The position numbers and the translations under genes are program-made. A DNA stretch of 64,000 bases. Source: TPA_inf: Saccharomyces. Taxonomy: Eukaryota. Each line of letters starts with the position of its first letter. Positions within the stretch are counted from its first letter, which is position 1. Under the pieces are notes generated by a model. It was not told the origin of the DNA. It ran no database searches and was given only the letters and a program-made list of their open reading frames with translations. This document shows positions 11,582-37,120 of this stretch, piece after piece. The stretch spans positions 288,001 to 352,000 of the forward strand of contig BK006944.2 of assembly GCA_000146045.2 (NCBI GenBank), written 5' to 3'.

Positions 11582-13882
11582 ATGCAACTGGAAGCCACTC
11601 ATCAGAAAGAAAACCACCTGTCTCCTTTGGCTAGCTTCATTTTTCCAGACTTCAGGGCATTGTTCAACATAGGGTTTAATTTATATTCTAATATAAACTA
11701 CAAAGAAGTAGATATTAATGGATTTGAAATTTACATTGTCGAACAATGGGCTGCCCAGAGAAAAATATCAACTCTAATCACTTCATATACGGGCAACTTA
11801 CAAGACACCATATCTGCAGTAGAGGTTGCTCTTCCCGAAGATCCTGAGGAATGGCCATGTTGTTTGAAGAAATACCATGAAGAATTGTTGAAGTTTTCTA
11901 GTCCAAAAAAGACTGCCAAAGGAACTTTATTTGTTACAAACCTTTCTTCTTTCAAATCTACGCTAAACTTATTGCATGTTGAGTGTGGTAATCTAAAGAA
12001 AATCTGGAAAAACTTCAAAACCAACTACGACCTAAAGAGATTACATTGTGGTGGTCGTTCAGCTCAGCTGTTAAAAAAGACACCTAGTGCCTCAATAGCG
12101 AAGTTTGCACAGTTATATAAATTTCCGAATTCAGCTTTTTCTCATGAAATAACGTCGGATTTCCAACAACCTTCTCTTCAGAATGACAACAGCTCAATAA
12201 GTAGCATAGAAAATATTCCTGTTAATCATTGCCCTGTGGTAGAACTAACTACCCTCGTGCAAATATCACTTAGTTATTTTGCGCTGTTTGAATACAAGAA
12301 GGAGAGAGATGGTCTCTTATGCAATGGAACGAAACAATCCCTTGAAAAATGGTGGGAAATATATGGGAAACGATACCACGGCATTGATAAGCCGAAGAAT
12401 GAAACGATCCTTGGTCCGACTACGGTGGCATCACTACTTAGTCTTGTATTGACTTGTTACTTCAAATTAATGGTAGAAGATTGCATGTCAGCAAAAGATC
12501 CGTTTGATGAAGAAGAGTTTTATTCTGGTCTTTATGCATTTCAAAAGAAATACGGCCTATCCAAAAACAATAAACAGACCTCCTTAGACGAACTAACAAT
12601 TGATAAATTATTTGAAGTATCTTCCAAGACTTCAAACAAAGATATTTTCAAGTTTAAAAAGGTTGTGAAGTCAACTGTTCAAGACATGACTGGCAAAGGA
12701 AACTTTATGCATCTATCCAATGAGATCCTAACAACTGATTTAGATACCCTGGTAAAGAATATACACGGTGGATCCCTTGGTAAGCTCTGGAAAGGGAGAA
12801 GTGCTTCGAGAAAGGAAACATGCATGGTTTGGGAAAGAAAAACCTTTCTAAGTTTCAAGTTTGAACGTGGAGATCCATCCTTACAATTGGAAAATAATGA
12901 GCTGTTTTATGGTACGAGTGTGCCAAGTGAACAGTTAACGACTTCCAATAAGGAGGACAGTGATACGCAACCCACAAAGAGAAATAGTATATATGATATT
13001 GCCAATGGCTCCAAATCATCGCTATCTATCTCATCCATGTTCTGTAATTATGATGAAACCCGTTACAAAAGTACCAACAACCTTAATAGAGCCTATAGGG
13101 GGGAGTATTTTAGGCGCAATTCGATCCCATTTTGTAACGATGGTATACACGATACTAAAAAAATATCTGCTGATCTTAATAAGATAGATGGATTGTATCG
13201 TTGCAATTCATATTCTGAGGTACAAAACGCAATAGAGCTGTGGAGCTTGCCATTCGATTCATCAGTCATCAGATTAGCAAGAGACTTACTTAAGATACAA
13301 AGTCTAATGTCAGTTCAACGTCAGCTCGATGAAATACGTGACGGATATCTGGGAAAAAATTCACAAAGATCATACCAGAATGATCTGATGTTTAGACAAA
13401 GCTTGAACAAATTGCAGGAAATGTGTGAGAGATGTAAGAGAGGTTCTAACGAATTTCACTGGGAATATGGTAACATGCAAAACAAACAGCAAATTTTGGA
13501 GAGTGAGAAAAAAGATATGAAATCACTTTCTTCGAAACTGAAATATAACGTTCGTATCCTAGATAGACGTGTAAGAGATGTTGAAGCCAGCGTAGATCAT
13601 TTTGATCGCAAGTTAGAGGATGTTAGAAAAAAGCTTCTGGAGCAAAATAATAGTAAAGACATATCTATGGCCTTAGAAAGTCCTTGTGATAAATTTGAAT
13701 TTGACAGTTTTATGGACTCTATAGTGCAGTCCCAACAGACTAAATATGAAGGGCTGTGTTTTAAAATTTTAGACAAGAAAAGTCTTCGAAAGTTAAAAAA
13801 GGAATTCTGGAAATGGAGCACCTGGACATTCGATACCTTCTTATACAAAAATAGGCCCAATAAGGAGAAAGATACACTATGA
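11582..13882 (+). CDS. STB6: Sin3-binding protein Stb6
   Basis: The track ORF is 771 aa. The second Met (MQLEAT...) gives 766 aa, matching STB6 (YKL072W). It is adjacent to LHS1 as on chrXI. Confidence 0.8.
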   Translation: MQLEATHQKENHLSPLASFIFPDFRALFNIGFNLYSNINYKEVDINGFEIYIVEQWAAQRKISTLITSYTGNLQDTISAVEVALPEDPEEWPCCLKKYHEELLKFSSPKKTAKGTLFVTNLSSFKSTLNLLHVECGNLKKIWKNFKTNYDLKRLHCGGRSAQLLKKTPSASIAKFAQLYKFPNSAFSHEITSDFQQPSLQNDNSSISSIENIPVNHCPVVELTTLVQISLSYFALFEYKKERDGLLCNGTKQSLEKWWEIYGKRYHGIDKPKNETILGPTTVASLLSLVLTCYFKLMVEDCMSAKDPFDEEEFYSGLYAFQKKYGLSKNNKQTSLDELTIDKLFEVSSKTSNKDIFKFKKVVKSTVQDMTGKGNFMHLSNEILTTDLDTLVKNIHGGSLGKLWKGRSASRKETCMVWERKTFLSFKFERGDPSLQLENNELFYGTSVPSEQLTTSNKEDSDTQPTKRNSIYDIANGSKSSLSISSMFCNYDETRYKSTNNLNRAYRGEYFRRNSIPFCNDGIHDTKKISADLNKIDGLYRCNSYSEVQNAIELWSLPFDSSVIRLARDLLKIQSLMSVQRQLDEIRDGYLGKNSQRSYQNDLMFRQSLNKLQEMCERCKRGSNEFHWEYGNMQNKQQILESEKKDMKSLSSKLKYNVRILDRRVRDVEASVDHFDRKLEDVRKKLLEQNNSKDISMALESPCDKFEFDSFMDSIVQSQQTKYEGLCFKILDKKSLRKLKKEFWKWSTWTFDTFLYKNRPNKEKDTL

Positions 13883-14204: not shown

Positions 14205-14334
14205 AATACTACGAATTATTGAGAAAATGAAAATCAACTATCATTTATCGATCAGTACATATAAGGTGAAAAGAGAAGGTAATAGCATTATGTAAAATAT
14301 TGGTGTCCTATATTCTCGAGGAAAACTTCTAGTG
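14205..14334 (+). mobile_element. Degenerate, internally deleted Ty LTR fragment (delta-like)
   Basis: 'gaaaatgaaaatcaactatcat...' resembles a delta 5' end (AATCAACTATCATCTAC). '...tcctatattctcgaggaaaacttctagt' resembles the delta 3' portion (TCCTATATCCTCGAGGAGAACTTCTAGT). The middle is missing. Confidence 0.4.
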
Positions 14335-14625
14335 GATTCCATTGTTGATGAAGGCTATAACATTAGGTATACAGAATATACTAGAAGTGCCTCCTCGAGG
14401 ATCTAGGAATACTCAAAATCTATATTTCTACATAAAAATATTACATATTATTCCTCGTTCCGTTTTATAGGTTTCATTATTACATTATCTATCCTTGCAT
14501 TTCAGCTTCCCCTGACTTCGATGACAGCTTCTCATAACTTATGTCATCATCTTAACACCGTATATGATAATATATTGATAGTATGACTATTAGTTGATAG
14601 ACAATAGTGGATTTTTATTCCAACA
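14335..14625 (-). mobile_element. Solo Ty LTR (delta/tau family; the 5' end looks more tau-like, i.e. Ty4) inserted upstream of tRNA-Trp
   Basis: The reverse complement begins TGTTGGAATAAAAATCCACTAT...ATATTATCATATACGGTGTTAAGATGATGACATAAG and contains ...GAAGCTGAAATGCAAGGATAG...GATTCCTA...CCTCGAGGA..GAACTTCTAGTATATTCTGTATACCTAATGTTATAGCCTTCATCAACAATGGAATC. It lies about 290 bp 5' of the tRNA gene, a typical Ty target zone. Confidence 0.7.
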
Positions 14626-14917: not shown

Positions 14918-15023
14918 GAAGCGGTGGCTCAATGGTAGAGCTTTCGACTCCAATTAAATCTTGGAAATTCCACGGAATAAGATTGCAATCGAAGGGTTGC
15001 AGGTTCAATTCCTGTCCGTTTCA
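14918..15023 (+). tRNA. tW(CCA)K: tRNA-Trp (anticodon CCA) with 34-nt intron (about 14954..14987)
   Basis: GAAGCGGTGGCTCAATGGTAGAGCTTTCGACTCCAA[intron]ATCGAAGGGTTGCAGGTTCAATTCCTGTCCGTTTCA has A-box and B-box (GGTTCAATTCC) elements and a downstream T-run terminator. The intron sits one nt 3' of the anticodon, as in yeast tRNA-Trp. Confidence 0.93.
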
Positions 15024-16882
15024 TTTTCTTTTTTTGCCATACATTTAGCGCTCCACACTCTAAATAAAGTATTTCTTCTTTTCTTGAAAATGATGTACTT
15101 AGGTTGATGAAATAGCCTCAGTTACTGGAATTTCCTTACCTTTGTCGTGTTACTGATAGTATATCTTAATCATTATTTCTTGTTTCAATCTGGATTTTGA
15201 TTTGCGCGGCATATCGTTACCGCCTTTTGCATATTATAAATGGCTTATATAAGTATACAGCAACTTTCATATATTATAGATAGGTAATTGCCTCCACATC
15301 GAATCACATAGGATAAAGAACCGACTTCCTGCCGCGAATTTAGAGTTTTCACGTTATGTGACCATCTCAATTTTTAGAATATTTGCTAAGCCACTTGCTA
15401 TTAAAACTTCATGGACAGGCCCCAGTATTATCGCAATAATACTGGAAACATCAACGAATGCTATAATAATGCGCATTTACTTTGGGCAAAAGAACTATTT
15501 AAAATTACGCATTACGTAGTTTATTTTGACATTATGATCATAAACATGCGCAAATCCTAAGATCGTGAATTACCTCTACTGCGAGAATACAAATTATAAC
15601 ATATGACTAACGTTACACAACATTGTATTACATTTCTGACTAATTTGAAGTCTGGGAGTTAATTGTAGTAGCCTACTAAATAGCGCGGTTATTTATAAAG
15701 CTAACATTACCATGTTACATGACATGCTATTTCTAGCGAGGTAAAAGCATTGCTCCGGCTTTTCGAAGATAAGTATTCCTTCAATTTCCAAATGTCACAA
15801 CATAAAATTTTGATTTGCGTTATCTCTCGTTCTCTTTAATCACTACAATAGCATCAACCAAGTCAATAAAACATGTTGTGAAGAGACTACGCAGACGTGA
15901 CGGTCATCTAGCAACTCTCCATCTTTTGATGCAGCCATCCACAGTTTATCGTGAGTTATGGCAAAATCCAAAAATGTACCGTACCATTTCCTCTTTAATC
16001 CTGTATTCAATAAGCAAGTTCCCCATTTCAATTGATCTACACATCACTGCGCGTTAAAGCGCACCTAATTTATTCGGTAGGAAACAGAAATAGTCTGCAA
16101 AGTCATTCAAGCACCTTTCTTTACCAAATGAAAGGATTTAATAGTACCTATGAAACAATAGTTCGAACTTTTGCCATTTCCCGGTTTTTTTGGCCAGCTT
16201 GTATAAAAGTGCACCTTACCCTTATATTGGGCTCTTATTGAATGCCTTCCGAAGAACTGACTATTCAAAAAATAGAAACAAGTACGTCAATAAAAAATTT
16301 TGCAATTCTACGAATAATTATTCCTGTTTCTTTAACCTGGTAAAAAAAAGTACAAACACTTAAGCTTTTTGAAACAGCTTTATTTTGCTTCATTAAATAG
16401 CTAGGATAAGAAATCCCTCATCCGAAAGGTTTTGTATCTAACTACCCTAGAGAACATTTGTCCTGATCAGGTTCATTTGGAGTTTATATTTTTTAGAAGC
16501 TCAAAGTTTGTTGGACTCATTACCATGGAAGAAAAAAAGAAGATACTACGAAATATTGGTTTCTCAGGTTAAATAAGGGACACCATTTTCCTATTAGGCT
16601 AGTCGAGCTTAGTTCTTCTAATTTCTTCAGATCTTCTATAATTTCCTATCTTCTACCTGATGTGTGCATGATATATCTATGAGCTCCTGATATTGCTTGT
16701 TTTACTTTAGCTTGCATGACTTGCAATAATCTAATCATATATGTTCCCGATTAATATACTGTGCACAAATTGCAGGACATATAATTTTTCCGTGGATTAT
16801 ATCTTCGATTAACGTCCGCGGGTCTCATAAAAAGCAAACCAACTTCGCAATTCCCTAGAAATACCTCAATAGAAAGTTATTT

Positions 16883-16972
16883 GTAATGAGATTAGTAATG
16901 AGATTAGCAATGAGATTAGTAATGAGATTAGTAATGAGATTAGTAATGTGATTAGTAATGCATAGCGGTATA
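16883..16972. repeat. 12-bp minisatellite (GTAATGAGATTA)x7.5; junctions create tandem Yap1-type TTAGTAA elements
   Basis: Seven consecutive 12-bp units plus a partial unit. One unit is GCAATGAGATTA, one is GTAATGTGATTA and the rest are identical. It is about 140-230 bp upstream of the YKL071W ATG. Confidence 0.95.
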
Positions 16973-17113
16973 AATGGTAGTACTAATAAGTAAGATAGTA
17001 TACCAGTTATAATAAATAGGCGGCGATGCTTCAAAACTAATTTTTGACGTTTTTAAGAATAAAGCCTTTACCAGTGGCATAAATCAGTAGAATTCTAAGC
17101 AAACAAAGTCGAT

Positions 17114-17884
17114 ATGAATACTTCATCAAGAATAACTTACTTTATCATCGGTGGTAGCCGTGGAATTGGTTTTAATTTGGTCAAAATTTTAAGCGCTTCT
17201 ACGGGCAATACAGTTATAACCTCTATTCGTGGATCACCTTCATTACCCAAGAACAAACAAGTGGAAGATTTAGCAAAAATCAGGAAGAATATCCATATTG
17301 TCCAACTTGACCTTACAAAGGACGAAAGTATTGGCAATATTGCGGACGAGATCAAGAAAACGCCATTCTTCTTGGGTATTGATATTTTTATCGCATGTTC
17401 TGCAGTATCTGATTCTTATTACAAGGTCCTGGAAACTCCCAAATCAGTCTGGCTCAACCATTATAGCACAAACGCTCTGGGTCCGATACTAGCCCTTCAA
17501 AAAGTTTATCCACTGCTTCTTTTGAAAAAGACGAGGAAGATATTCTTTATCTCTAGTGTTGCAGGATCTATCAATGCGTTTGTACCACTTTCTGTTTCCG
17601 CTTATGGTCAATCGAAAGCTGCCTTGAATTATGCGGTAAAGACGCTCAGTTTTGAATTGAAACCGGAGGGTTTTACTGTCGTTGCTTTTCACCCAGGTAT
17701 GGTATCTACTGATATGGGCCAATATGGCCTTGATCATTTTAAAGAGAAGAATATAGACATCAGCGGCGTAAATATTATCACACCAGAAGAAAGTGCCTCT
17801 GCGCTAATTGATGTCTTCCGAAAAATTTTACCAGAAGATAATGGAAAGTTCTTCAACTATGACGGCAGCGAAGGCGTCTTTTAG
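17114..17884 (+). CDS. YKL071W: Short-chain dehydrogenase/reductase family protein (NAD(P)-binding Rossmann fold)
   Basis: N-terminal GxxxGxG-type motif (IIGGSRGIG) and a YGQSK catalytic motif (Y-x3-K). 256 aa, matching YKL071W. Confidence 0.88.
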   Translation: MNTSSRITYFIIGGSRGIGFNLVKILSASTGNTVITSIRGSPSLPKNKQVEDLAKIRKNIHIVQLDLTKDESIGNIADEIKKTPFFLGIDIFIACSAVSDSYYKVLETPKSVWLNHYSTNALGPILALQKVYPLLLLKKTRKIFFISSVAGSINAFVPLSVSAYGQSKAALNYAVKTLSFELKPEGFTVVAFHPGMVSTDMGQYGLDHFKEKNIDISGVNIITPEESASALIDVFRKILPEDNGKFFNYDGSEGVF

Positions 17885-18210: not shown

Positions 18211-18720
18211 ATGTACATTCCTAAACATTTTGAGTCCATGGAACTCTCAAGGTACAAATTATCAAAAAAACCCCCGCTAGGAACACTATTCTCCTCTAAG
18301 GCTAGCAGGCAAGGTTTCTTCGGATGGAGAACTTCTTCCAATAAAGATGACCCCGATTTTGGTATGTGCGCATCACATATTCCATTTGTATTCGTGGAGT
18401 TCGATAATGGAGAGCATAAACTTATTGCACATTTAGCACGGAAGAATAAACATGTGGAAATGCTGGAAAGAGTTCAAAAATGCTTAGTGGTATTTCAGAG
18501 CGTCGATTCATACATTTCTCCGGCGTGGTTCCCAATGAAGAAAAAGACCCATAAGTTCGTACCAACATGGGATTTTGCCGCTGTGCACGTTTACGGTACA
18601 CCAAGGATTATCCGCGACGATAAAGACTGGCTTATTAATATGTTATCAACTTTGACTGACCAAGAAGAAGAGAAAAGACCTGAGGGGGAAAATGTACGAA
18701 GTAAAGTGGAGCGTTTCTGA
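18211..18720 (+). CDS. YKL070W: Small protein of unknown function YKL070W (putative FMN-binding split-barrel-like)
   Basis: 169-aa ORF at the position and length expected for YKL070W. No strong motif recognised beyond that. Confidence 0.7.
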   Translation: MYIPKHFESMELSRYKLSKKPPLGTLFSSKASRQGFFGWRTSSNKDDPDFGMCASHIPFVFVEFDNGEHKLIAHLARKNKHVEMLERVQKCLVVFQSVDSYISPAWFPMKKKTHKFVPTWDFAAVHVYGTPRIIRDDKDWLINMLSTLTDQEEEKRPEGENVRSKVERF

Positions 18721-19284
18721 TGCCCCAGATTATTATATCAATGCTATGCTTCAAAACATTGTCGGGCTTGAAATCAGTATTACCCATATTCAATCAAAGT
18801 TCAAATTCGACCAAAATAAATCACAGATTAATGTTGAAGGCATATGTTGAAAATTCAAAGAATTTGGTGGAGAAAGAGGCCAAGAAATGGCTCGCCTTGT
18901 AAAAGATAACTATCCAGGTAGCTTATAAGTTTTGTATTTTCTCTGCGCATTAAATATCAATAATTATTTATTCGTTTTCATTCTTTTCTTATCTTATCTT
19001 TTAATATTGACTTAACAGAGGGCAAGGCCCACCGTGATGCAGAAAGAACACAAACGCAAAGGTTTACCTATTCCCTGCAGTTAGAAAACCATGTTTGGAG
19101 GAAATGAAGAAAGATATTTACAGTTGAGTTTACAACGAAGTATTATCCTTTTTAACGAACGCTAATATCATCGGTTTCTTCATGTTTATATGATGACGAT
19201 TTTCCCAAATGTAAGCAAACAAAGGCGTTTGCTGATAAAACAAATCCGTAAATTAGAAAAAAAAACAAAAAAAAACAAACAGAT

Positions 19285-25400: not shown

Positions 25401-25472
25401 TGCCATCTCCTAGAATCGAACCAGGGTTTCATCGGCCACAACGATGTGTACTAACCACTATACTAAGATGGC
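25401..25472 (-). tRNA. tH(GUG)K: tRNA-His (anticodon GUG)
   Basis: The reverse complement is GCCATCTTAGTATAGTGGTTAGTACACATCGTTGTGGCCGATGAAACCCTGGTTCGATTCTAGGAGATGGCA, with anticodon GTG, a B-box GGTTCGATTC, and a T-run 3' on the minus strand. Confidence 0.93.
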
Positions 25473-25601: not shown

Positions 25602-25918
25602 GGAGAAATATGTGAGTTGTTAGATAATTGTTGGGATTCCATTGCTGCTAAAGGCTATAATATTGGTATACAGAATATACTAGAAGTTCTCCTCGAGGAT
25701 ATAGGAATCCACAAAAGGGAATCGATAGTTCTACATAATGTTATTATTTTATCTTCCTTCCTTTTATATGTTGTCATTCATTATCCTATTACATTATCAA
25801 TCCTTGCATTTCAGCTTCCATTAGATCGGATGACTGTTTCTCAATCTTTATGTCATCTTCTCACACCGCATGTGATAATATAATATTAAATAGATGATAT
25901 TAGAGTTCAATTCCAACA
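25602..25918 (-). mobile_element. Solo Ty LTR (delta/tau family), reverse orientation, about 130 bp upstream of tRNA-His
   Basis: The plus strand reads ...GAGAAATATGTGAGTTGTTAGATAATTGTTGGGATTCCATTG...CTCGAGGATATAGGAATCC...TTCCAACA, i.e. an LTR on the minus strand with a TGTTGGAA... terminus. Confidence 0.75.
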
Positions 25919-26192: not shown

Positions 26193-26524
26193 TGTTGGAA
26201 TAAAAATCAACTATCATCTACTAACTAGTATTTACGTTGCTAGTATATTATCATATACGGTGTTAGAAGCTGGCGCAAATGATGAGAAATAGTCATCTAA
26301 ATTAGTGGAAGCTGAAACGCAAGGATTGATAATGTAATAGGATCAATGAATGTTAACATATAAAACGATGATAATAATATTTATAGAATTGTGTAGAATT
26401 ACAGATTCCCTTTTATGGATTCCTAAATCCTTGAGGAGAACTTCTAGTATATCTACATACCTAATATTATAGCCTTAATCACAATGGAATCCCAACAATT
26501 ACATCAGAATCCACTGAGTCTTCA
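26193..26524 (+). mobile_element. Solo Ty1/Ty2 delta LTR (forward orientation)
   Basis: TGTTGGAATAAAAATCAACTATCATCTACTAACTAGTATTTAC...TATATTATCATATACGGTGTTAGAAG...GAAGCTGAAACGCAAGGATTGATAATGTAATAGGATCAATGAAT...CCTTGAGGAGAACTTCTAGTATATCTACATACCTAATATTATAGCC...ATGGAATCCCAACAATTA is a near full-length (~332 bp) delta. Confidence 0.88.
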
Positions 26525-33765: not shown

Positions 33766-33814
33766 CTGCACAGCTTGCTATCCCGCTGCACAGCTTGCTA
33801 TCCCGCTGCACAAC
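33766..33814. repeat. Tandem duplication, 2.45 copies of a 20-bp unit CTGCACAGCTTGCTATCCCG
   Basis: Two perfect adjacent copies plus a 9-bp partial third copy, about 250 bp upstream of the YKL063C ATG. Confidence 0.95.
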
Positions 33815-35227: not shown

Positions 35228-37120
35228 ATGCTAGTCTTCGGACCTAATAGTAGTTTCGTTCGTCACGCAAACAAGAAACAAGAAGATTCGTCTATAATGA
35301 ACGAGCCAAACGGATTGATGGACCCGGTATTGAGCACAACCAACGTTTCTGCTACTTCTTCTAATGACAATTCTGCGAACAATAGCATATCTTCGCCGGA
35401 ATATACCTTTGGTCAATTCTCAATGGATTCTCCGCATAGAACGGACGCCACTAATACTCCAATTTTAACAGCGACAACTAATACGACTGCTAATAATAGT
35501 TTAATGAATTTAAAGGATACCGCCAGTTTAGCTACCAACTGGAAGTGGAAAAATTCCAATAACGCACAGTTCGTGAATGACGGTGAGAAACAAAGCAGTA
35601 ATGCTAATGGTAAGAAAAATGGTGGTGATAAGATATATAGTTCAGTAGCCACCCCTCAAGCTTTAAATGACGAATTGAAAAACTTGGAGCAACTAGAAAA
35701 GGTATTTTCTCCAATGAATCCTATCAATGACAGTCATTTTAATGAAAATATAGAATTATCGCCACACCAACATGCAACTTCTCCCAAGACAAACCTTCTT
35801 GAGGCAGAACCTTCAATATATTCCAATTTGTTTCTAGATGCTAGGTTACCAAACAACGCCAACAGTACAACAGGATTGAACGACAATGATTATAATCTAG
35901 ACGATACCAATAATGATAATACTAATAGCATGCAATCAATCTTAGAGGATTTTGTATCTTCAGAAGAAGCATTGAAGTTCATGCCGGACGCTGGTCGCGA
36001 CGCAAGAAGATACAGCGAGGTGGTTACCTCTTCCTTTCCTTCTATGACGGATTCTAGAAATTCGATCTCTCATTCGATAGAGTTTTGGAATCTCAATCAC
36101 AAAAATAGTAGCAACAGTAAACCCACTCAACAAATTATCCCTGAAGGTACTGCCACTACTGAGAGGCGTGGATCAACCATTTCACCTACTACCACTATAA
36201 ACAACTCTAATCCAAACTTCAAATTATTAGATCATGACGTTTCTCAAGCTCTGAGCGGTTATAGTATGGATTTTTCTAAGGACTCTGGTATAACAAAGCC
36301 AAAAAGCATTTCCTCTTCTTTAAATCGCATCTCCCATAGCAGTAGCACCACAAGGCAACAGCGTGCCTCTTTGCCCTTAATTCATGATATTGAATCTTTT
36401 GCAAATGATTCGGTGATGGCAAATCCTCTGTCTGATTCCGCATCATTTCTTTCAGAAGAAAATGAAGACGATGCTTTTGGTGCGCTAAATTACAATAGCT
36501 TAGATGCAACCACAATGTCGGCATTCGACAATAACGTAGACCCCTTCAACATTCTCAAGTCATCTCCGGCTCAGGATCAACAGTTTATCAAACCCTCTAT
36601 GATGTTGTCGGATAATGCCTCTGCTGCCGCTAAATTGGCGACTTCTGGTGTTGATAATATCACACCTACACCAGCTTTCCAAAGAAGAAGCTATGATATC
36701 TCGATGAACTCTTCGTTCAAAATACTTCCTACTAGTCAAGCTCACCATGCAGCTCAACATCATCAACAACAACCTACTAAACAGGCAACGGTAAGCCCAA
36801 ACACAAGAAGAAGAAAGTCGTCAAGTGTTACTTTAAGTCCAACTATTTCTCATAACAACAACAATGGTAAGGTTCCTGTCCAACCTCGGAAAAGGAAATC
36901 TATTACTACCATTGACCCCAACAACTACGATAAAAATAAACCTTTCAAGTGTAAAGACTGTGAGAAGGCATTCAGACGCAGTGAGCACTTGAAAAGGCAT
37001 ATAAGATCCGTTCATTCAACGGAACGCCCTTTTGCTTGTATGTTCTGTGAGAAAAAATTCAGTAGAAGTGACAATTTATCACAACATCTAAAAACTCACA
37101 AAAAGCACGGTGATTTTTGA
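35228..37120 (+). CDS. MSN4: Stress-responsive C2H2 zinc-finger transcription factor
   Basis: 630 aa. The C-terminus has two C2H2 fingers ([24 protein letters not shown]; [23 protein letters not shown]) after a long S/N/T-rich region. Confidence 0.95.

Follow-up and report, generated by a model that had tools for sequence, protein, structure and literature searches.

A strain-variable 12-bp tandem array of putative Yap1 response elements upstream of OSI1 (YKL071W) in Saccharomyces cerevisiae

The promoter of OSI1 (YKL071W), a short-chain dehydrogenase/reductase gene of Saccharomyces cerevisiae, was found to carry a head-to-tail array of 12-bp units, and the array as a whole is, with good confidence, best explained as the Yap1-dependent upstream activating sequence of the gene. 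Yap1 control of OSI1 is correct and already published, at textbook level for the field, and the link between the two adds by itself nothing new. What is new here is the polymorphism of the array in S. cerevisiae, together with a 12-bp array in S. kudriavzevii and a decaying one in S. paradoxus. The locus is of value as a compact natural test bed in which the stress response can be related to how many identical activator sites are present and how they are packed, as it combines a natural allelic series of two to eight heptamers in otherwise near-identical promoters, an S. kudriavzevii version that separates conserved cores from drifting spacers, and an OSI1::luciferase reporter that already exists.

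Structure of the array and of the OSI1 promoter

In the window (the whole 64-kb stretch of DNA that was analysed), a unit search found 6.5 units of GTAATGAGATTA over 78 bp (Table 1), corresponding to chrXI 304883-304960. The six full units, at 16883-16954, are two copies of GTAATGAGATTA, one of GCAATGAGATTA, two further copies of GTAATGAGATTA and one of GTAATGTGATTA, such that only units 3 and 6 depart from the exact GTAATGAGATTA sequence, and the array is closed by a half unit, GTAATG, at 16955-16960. Read in the register of the Yap1 response element (YRE), the unit is GATTAGTAATGA. Tandem Repeats Finder (TRF) reported 16879-16960 with a period of 12, 6.8 copies and 94% matches without indels, and the score of 143 ranks second among the 69 rows for the window. 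Head-to-tail units of at least 10 bp are a property of minisatellites, and the 12-bp period of the array conforms to it. An initial annotation made from the sequence had recognized the start, strand and period of the array, but counted 7.5 copies extending to 16972, which is one unit too many; 16961-16972 is CATAGCGGTATA and includes no repeat unit.

The array contains five exact TTAGTAA heptamers and one TTAGCAA variant at 12-bp steps, not the six and one counted originally, and all of these elements are co-oriented and separated by 5-bp spacers. The unit with TTAGCAA may be inactive. The array was correctly placed upstream of the dehydrogenase reading frame; the distance to the OSI1 ATG (17114), given before as 140-230 bp, was measured as 154-231 bp.

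Table 1 Features of the OSI1 promoter and gene. Positions are those of the window.
Feature	Position	Strand	Basis
Tandem array, 6.5 units of GTAATGAGATTA, probable OSI1 upstream activating sequence	16883..16960	+	sequence, TRF, unit search
TTTGTAA, heptamer with one mismatch, left array edge; the S. paradoxus counterpart is a perfect TTAGTAA	16880..16886	+	sequence
Putative Yap1 response element 1, TTAGTAA, extended form GATTAGTAATG	16892..16898	+	motif match
Variant heptamer TTAGCAA; TTAGTAA in allele L005, duplicated in allele L018	16904..16910	+	sequence, allele comparison
Putative Yap1 response element 2, TTAGTAA	16916..16922	+	motif match
Putative Yap1 response element 3, TTAGTAA	16928..16934	+	motif match
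Putative Yap1 response element 4, TTAGTAA	16940..16946	+	motif match
Putative Yap1 response element 5, TTAGTAA; S. paradoxus, S. kudriavzevii, S. arboricola and S. uvarum have a TTAGTAA about as far from the ATG	16952..16958	+	motif match
Candidate TATA box TATAAATG	16969..16976	+	consensus match
OSI1 / YKL071W ORF, 256 aa, short-chain dehydrogenase/reductase (Pfam adh_short)	17114..17884	+	protein identity, orthologue names, coordinates

The consensus of the TATA box is TATA(A/T)A(A/T)(A/G), and this is matched by TATAAATG, which begins 145 bp before the ATG and is separated from the end of the array by 10 bp. It is the candidate TATA box of OSI1, and the array thus has the location, upstream of the core promoter, of an upstream activating sequence. 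In S. paradoxus (L007), the position matching -145 of S. cerevisiae is without a TATA box, and a consensus TATA, TATAAATA, is present at -110; the S. cerevisiae sequence there, TATAATAA, is weaker. From these sequences, the core-promoter element looks to have shifted between the two sister species.

The identity of the gene was assigned from its 256-aa product, which is identical to S. cerevisiae YKL071W entries and has orthologues annotated as Osi1p/YKL071W, and from the published YKL071W coordinates, chrXI 305114-305884, which agree with the offset of the window. According to work cited in PMC13398684, the product is an aldehyde reductase that depends on NADH and has furfural, glycolaldehyde and further aldehydes as substrates.

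Copy-number alleles and related promoters

Promoters were retrieved from public assemblies by searching for exact matches to OSI1 protein alleles, plus one metagenome scan with the left flank, which gave three contigs, and array alleles were defined by excising the sequence between the conserved flanks. At least seven array alleles, of 2.5, 3.5, 6.5, 7.5 and 8.5 units, were found in public assemblies of S. cerevisiae (Table 2), in agreement with the strain polymorphism predicted in the initial annotation, which had proposed this comparison of copy number across strains. The array flanks are co-linear between alleles, and the promoters are otherwise near-identical. The number of perfect TTAGTAA heptamers per allele ranges from 2 to 7 and tracks the number of units; with TTAGCAA variants included, the alleles have 2, 3, 6, 7 or 8 heptamers. 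Thus, copy number differs between individuals and each unit brings one putative binding site, both being properties of a minisatellite of this kind.

Table 2 Array alleles of S. cerevisiae. A, GTAATGAGATTA; T, GTAATGTGATTA; c, GCAATGAGATTA; d, GCAATGTGATTA; a, GTAATGAAATTA; >, closing half unit GTAATG with CATAGC, the initial six right-flank bases; }, likewise with CATAAC.
Allele	Units	Found in
AT>	2.5	nine loci, including the chromosome-scale GCA_000977055.4, GCA_030036015.1 and GCA_000977505.2
TAd}	3.5	GCA_947370215.1 (L006)
AAcAAT>	6.5	the window and six other loci
AAAAAT>	6.5	L005 (copy number less secure)
AAccAAT>	7.5	L018 (copy number less secure)
AaATTTT>	7.5	GCA_029990825.1 (L015)
AAcAAAAT>	8.5	GCA_932563355.1

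Four of the alleles, those with 2.5, 3.5 and 8.5 units and one with 7.5 units, are each found in contigs of 575-698 kb. The copy numbers of AAAAAT> and AAccAAT>, seen only in short-read or metagenome assemblies, are less secure. Indeed, the Logan short-read contigs L020, L021 and L023-L026 end inside the array, typically 195 bp before the ATG, which indicates that the repeat breaks de Bruijn assemblies, so that copy number is missed or possibly collapsed; standard short-read variant calls will miss the polymorphism. The unit that has been expanded differs by allele, being of A type in some and of T type in another, and one protein allele (P0083) occurs with both 7.5 and 8.5 units. These two observations point to several independent and fairly recent length changes.

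Two alleles are next to a frameshifted OSI1. The 3.5-unit allele is accompanied by a 2-bp AT insertion at about nucleotide 223 of the reading frame (L006 1501-2273, GCA_947370215.1), and AaATTTT> by a 1-bp deletion at nucleotide 15 (L015 ~1650-2426, GCA_029990825.1). OSI1 looks disabled in both, judging from the reading frames, though the frameshift in L006 may be an assembly error. Gene models in the annotations bridge the two frameshifts and give proteins of 239 aa (L006) and 261 aa (L015), the latter model being recorded on four contigs. As two alleles are linked to a frameshifted gene, part of the length variation may be drift after inactivation or under relaxed constraint; alleles with an intact OSI1 ORF still range from 2.5 to 8.5 units.

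The left flank of the array, CAGAAATAC, is common to S. cerevisiae, S. paradoxus and S. kudriavzevii, which indicates that the promoters of the three species are homologous. In the S. paradoxus orthologue, found at the same locus, TTAGTAA occurs at -189, -177 and -156, and the promoter reads as a decayed four-unit array, TATTAGTAATGG GATTAGTAATGA GGTTA-TAATGC TTAGTAATGT. Upstream of the S. kudriavzevii homologue, six heptamers are spaced at exactly 12 bp, at -213, -201, -189, -177, -165 and -153, and these are, in order, TTACTAA, TTAGTAT, TTAGCAA and three of TTAGTAA (four perfect and two near sites). The units are CATTACTAATAG AATTAGTATTAG TATTAGCAAAAC CATTAGTAACAG AATTAGTAATAT CATTAGTAATGG, identical in two sources. 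A TCAGTAA was considered as a seventh near-site in this species and was excluded, its distance to the next site being 10 bp instead of 12. Pairwise identity between the S. kudriavzevii units is 0.86 for the heptamer versus 0.44 for the spacer; the corresponding values in S. cerevisiae are 0.95 and 0.80.

The other promoters have fewer sites. S. arboricola has one, GATTAGTAATGG, followed 12 bp on by the degenerate AATTAATAATCG; S. uvarum has two, and Zygosaccharomyces bailii has one, GATTAGTAATGG at -205. Each of these three retains (G/C)ATTAGTAAT within -138 to -215. The extended palindrome ATTAGTAAT recurs across species, all orthologue sites bear the ATTAGTAA extension, and TTAGTAA is retained at the corresponding place in five species, as would be expected of sites conserved in orthologous promoters. 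The closest OSI1 homologues in S. kudriavzevii (L032), S. uvarum (L017) and S. arboricola (L016) are located about 0.4-13 kb from a contig end and outside the STB6-YKL070W interval, that of S. kudriavzevii adjoining an NMT1/THI5-type gene. In these species the gene and its promoter may have moved, or the homologues may be paralogues.

The retention of heptamers and period while the spacers drift is a signature of constraint on the sites and on their packing. On this comparison of sequences, the 12-bp-periodic architecture is old and constrained, and the S. cerevisiae array is an old design that has recently expanded again and been homogenised. The suggestion that the array is a purely young minisatellite is contradicted by the diverged spacers of the S. 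kudriavzevii array.

Yap1 control and alternative explanations

Oxidants and thiol-reactive electrophiles modify cysteines of Yap1, either through a peroxide relay or by direct alkylation. Modified Yap1 is no longer exported by Crm1, accumulates in the nucleus and binds DNA as a bZIP dimer. In the table of DeRisi et al. 1997, YKL071W reportedly has several Yap1 sites, at about 160-220 bp upstream, and the gene is said to be given as Yap1-bound in ChIP-chip compendia.

In the published work, PMC8088429 cites TTACTAA as the sequence that Yap1 prefers, and the reverse complement of this heptamer, TTAGTAA, as the second of the natural sites in TRX2, which bears out the assignment of TTA(C/G)TAA as the recognition element in the initial annotation; the array carries five exact sites of this form. 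The gene was also correctly taken for a strong Yap1 target. OSI1 was described as 'absolutely Yap1-dependent' and as the most allicin-induced gene, and a fusion of its promoter to luciferase is a highly sensitive Yap1 reporter (PMC8001868). Likewise, YKL071w was grouped with Yap1-regulated, YRE-bearing genes and was up more than 70-fold in trr1-delta, where Yap1 is constitutively nuclear (PMC4172583). Yap1 dependence and induction of the downstream gene are taken from these two reports. PMC7801573 provides only a generic in-silico promoter score. In the searchable papers that name YKL071W, neither a tandem repetition of the sites nor any polymorphism is described, and a search for YKL071W with TTAGTAA, or with eQTL or strain differences, returned nothing.

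The clustering of the heptamer in the array exceeds chance. TTASTAA occurs 7 times in the 64-kb window versus 15.3 +/- 4.0 in dinucleotide-preserving shuffles, and five of the seven occurrences fall within the 78-bp array, where base composition predicts 0.027. No other TTASTAA, and no TGASTAA, TTACGTAA or TGASTCA, is present from 15637 to the OSI1 ATG, which covers 1.2 kb upstream, and the last three motifs are likewise absent from the OSI1-YKL070W spacer. As no other canonical site is found near the gene, the array provides the only canonical sites of OSI1, reportedly an absolutely Yap1-dependent gene.

This last point bears on the reading of the array as a neutral product of slippage, in which the heptamers are incidental and Yap1 acts elsewhere or through a single site. 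The S. cerevisiae units are 94% identical, as expected after a recent expansion, copy number drifts between strains, including alleles beside frameshifted reading frames, and the common 2.5-unit allele suggests that a functional, intact gene can go with two sites. Neutral slippage nevertheless appears quite unlikely, since it would have to place by accident the only canonical sites of a gene that depends absolutely on Yap1 (PMC8001868), and a random 12-mer unit would hold TTASTAA in only about 0.4% of cases (12 phases x 3.5e-4). Furthermore, S. kudriavzevii keeps the heptamers and the 12-bp period despite the divergence of its spacers, and TTAGTAA stands at the corresponding place in all five species.

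Little credence can also be given to a role of the array in chromatin or spacing of the type described by Vinces et al. 2009, in which nucleosome exclusion or distance would make length matter and not the number of sites. The review PMC3899988 states that yeast promoter repeats are enriched in nucleosome-free regions and that their length alters expression, and in OSI1 the array abuts the TATA box, so that its length displaces everything upstream. On the other hand, the Yap1 dependence of the gene (PMC8001868) is left unexplained by this reading. The unit has 67% A+T versus 62% in the window and is without a poly(dA:dT) tract, and the part of the unit conserved in S. kudriavzevii is the heptamer, not composition or spacer. 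A contribution of this type may exist as a side effect of the array.

The TTAC half-site is shared by the members of the Yap family. Accordingly, the sites could be read by other Yap-family bZIPs (Cad1/Yap2, Yap3-8), or by a homeodomain-type reader of the ATTA/TAAT cores that the extended palindrome ATTAGTAAT contains, with Yap1 acting indirectly. This seems very unlikely in view of the reported absolute dependence of OSI1 on Yap1 (PMC8001868) and of its rise alongside other YRE genes in cells with constitutively nuclear Yap1 (PMC4172583), and the searchable papers naming YKL071W gave no evidence for another factor; it is possible that other Yap-family factors use the sites in addition to Yap1. 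Last, a decoy that titrates Yap1 off other promoters and sharpens their response, by analogy with the repeated sites that sequester an activator and sharpen the dose-response in a synthetic yeast system (PMC3322331), can be dismissed, as a decoy array calls for enough sites uncoupled from a core promoter and here only 2-8 sites are present, 10 bp from the TATA box of a strongly induced gene.

The preferred reading, an upstream activating sequence that depends on Yap1, can be compared with characterized promoters. The OSI1 array resembles the TRX2 promoter (Kuge and Jones 1994; Fernandes et al. 1997, both as cited in PMC8088429) in its TTACTAA/TTAGTAA heptamers, in the factor and in the stress logic, and the sites of TRX2, as summarized in PMC8088429, are likewise roughly 150-230 bp upstream of the ATG. 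The two TRX2 sites, however, stand in unique sequence with 29 nt between them, whereas OSI1 has 5-6 co-oriented sites 5 nt apart in a tandem repeat that varies with the strain.

Closer in layout are the synthetic Yap1 biosensors, namely pSynOS_4(alt1) (Dacquay and McMillen 2021) and the hybrid TRX2 promoters of Zhang et al. 2016, in which head-to-tail TTAGTAA sites with short spacers are placed at the core promoter, as in OSI1. These are engineered with four sites at a 16-bp period (9-nt spacer), while the OSI1 array is natural, has 2-8 sites by strain at a 12-bp period and, unlike them, has an architecture conserved in S. kudriavzevii. In synthetic promoters the number and spacing of Yap1 sites govern both basal level and fold induction; minimal promoters required at least three sites, performed best with 4-6 and had a higher basal level with 8, spacer lengths of 0, 9, 19 and 29 nt were tried, of which the two shorter were functional and the two longer were not, and the TTAGTAA orientation gave a lower basal level and induction up to about 21-fold (PMC8088429). 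The authors called the cooperation of close Yap1 sites previously unknown (PMC8088429). The OSI1 array, with its 5-nt spacers, TTAGTAA orientation and 5-6 sites, is within the synthetic working range and looks like a natural counterpart of an optimised sensor, in keeping with reports that OSI1 is induced very strongly.

With its unit holding a site and its polymorphism in the population, the OSI1 locus falls into a known class, that of transcription-factor sites repeated in tandem in variable number. In the cases described in PMC3899988, section 3.1, an effect of copy number on expression was demonstrated, while for OSI1 such an effect is proposed by analogy, and that section gives no example from yeast. 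The repeats of Vinces et al. 2009, such as that of SDT1 (via PMC3899988), are like that of OSI1 in being polymorphic promoter repeats of S. cerevisiae and candidates for expression divergence. They are described there as nucleosome-excluding, whereas the OSI1 unit is an activator site and is not unusually rich in A+T.

In the proposed mechanism, each 12-bp unit would give one Yap1 response element, ATTAGTAAT, built around TTAGTAA. Upon stress, Yap1 would become nuclear and its bZIP dimers would bind the closely packed sites, and several activators bound beside the core promoter would result in OSI1, the gene of an aldehyde-reducing detoxification enzyme, being transcribed at a very low level in the basal state and at a very high one upon induction. 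In this model every site would be occupied, neighbouring dimers would act in synergy, and the response may be switch-like. The 12-bp spacing corresponds to a rotation of about 51 degrees per step on a 10.5-bp helix, and a centre-to-centre distance of 12 bp leaves little room for bZIP dimers; adjacent sites may be occupied simultaneously, but the filling of all sites at once need not be necessary. Since a unit is a site, replication slippage or unequal exchange would add or remove whole sites, and in this way S. cerevisiae strains would have come to carry 2 to 7 perfect ones. Copy number probably tunes the OSI1 response, if the analogy with synthetic promoters is accepted; as these respond to the number of sites, two-site and seven- or eight-site alleles are expected to differ in both basal level and fold induction. 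The sensitivity of a biosensor built on the OSI1 promoter may, too, vary with the strain of origin.

A further proposal is made only tentatively, namely that the array acts as a natural rheostat, in which site gain and loss at a high rate (2-8 sites with intact reading frames) would set a lineage-specific threshold and dynamic range, and the 12-bp packing would reflect cooperativity of Yap1 dimers. If so, an electrophile-detoxifying enzyme would be tuned differently by lineage.

Features of the neighbourhood

Assignment of the array to a mobile element or an RNA gene was considered and rejected, the nearest tRNA and LTR-like stretch being more than 1.8 kb off. The former is an intergenic, intron-containing tRNA of 106 bp at 14918-15023 (+), with the anticodon CCA and tRNA-Trp-like (detected with Rfam and missed by ARAGORN). 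The LTR-like stretch, 14334-14625, is 76-78% identical to 25634-25882 and 26193-26492, both of which adjoin a second tRNA at 25401-25472 (-). The tRNA and the LTR-like stretch account for the unusually long gap, 3.2 kb, between the upstream ORF (ending at 13882) and OSI1.

Downstream of OSI1 is YKL070W, encoding an FMN_bind_2 protein (region 18211-18902, +), which groups with YKL071W in one oxidative-stress dataset. Its product is 169 aa in the window versus 212 aa in several other strains (compare L008 2598-3236). An additional A at 18689 puts the sequence out of frame, leaving the remainder as a separate 60-aa ORF at 18720-18902. Thus, the reference-type strain has a truncated allele of YKL070W.

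Outside the array, TTASTAA is strongly under-represented in the window (2 found versus about 15 expected from the shuffles), likely because the heptamer and its complement hold TAG/TAA stops in some frames and are shunned by coding sequence. The window also contains a perfect 20-bp tandem repeat, CTGCACAGCTTGCTATCCCG, of 2.3 copies with 100% matches, in intergenic sequence at 33766-33812, about 1.4 kb 5' of a 630-aa ORF at 35228-37120.
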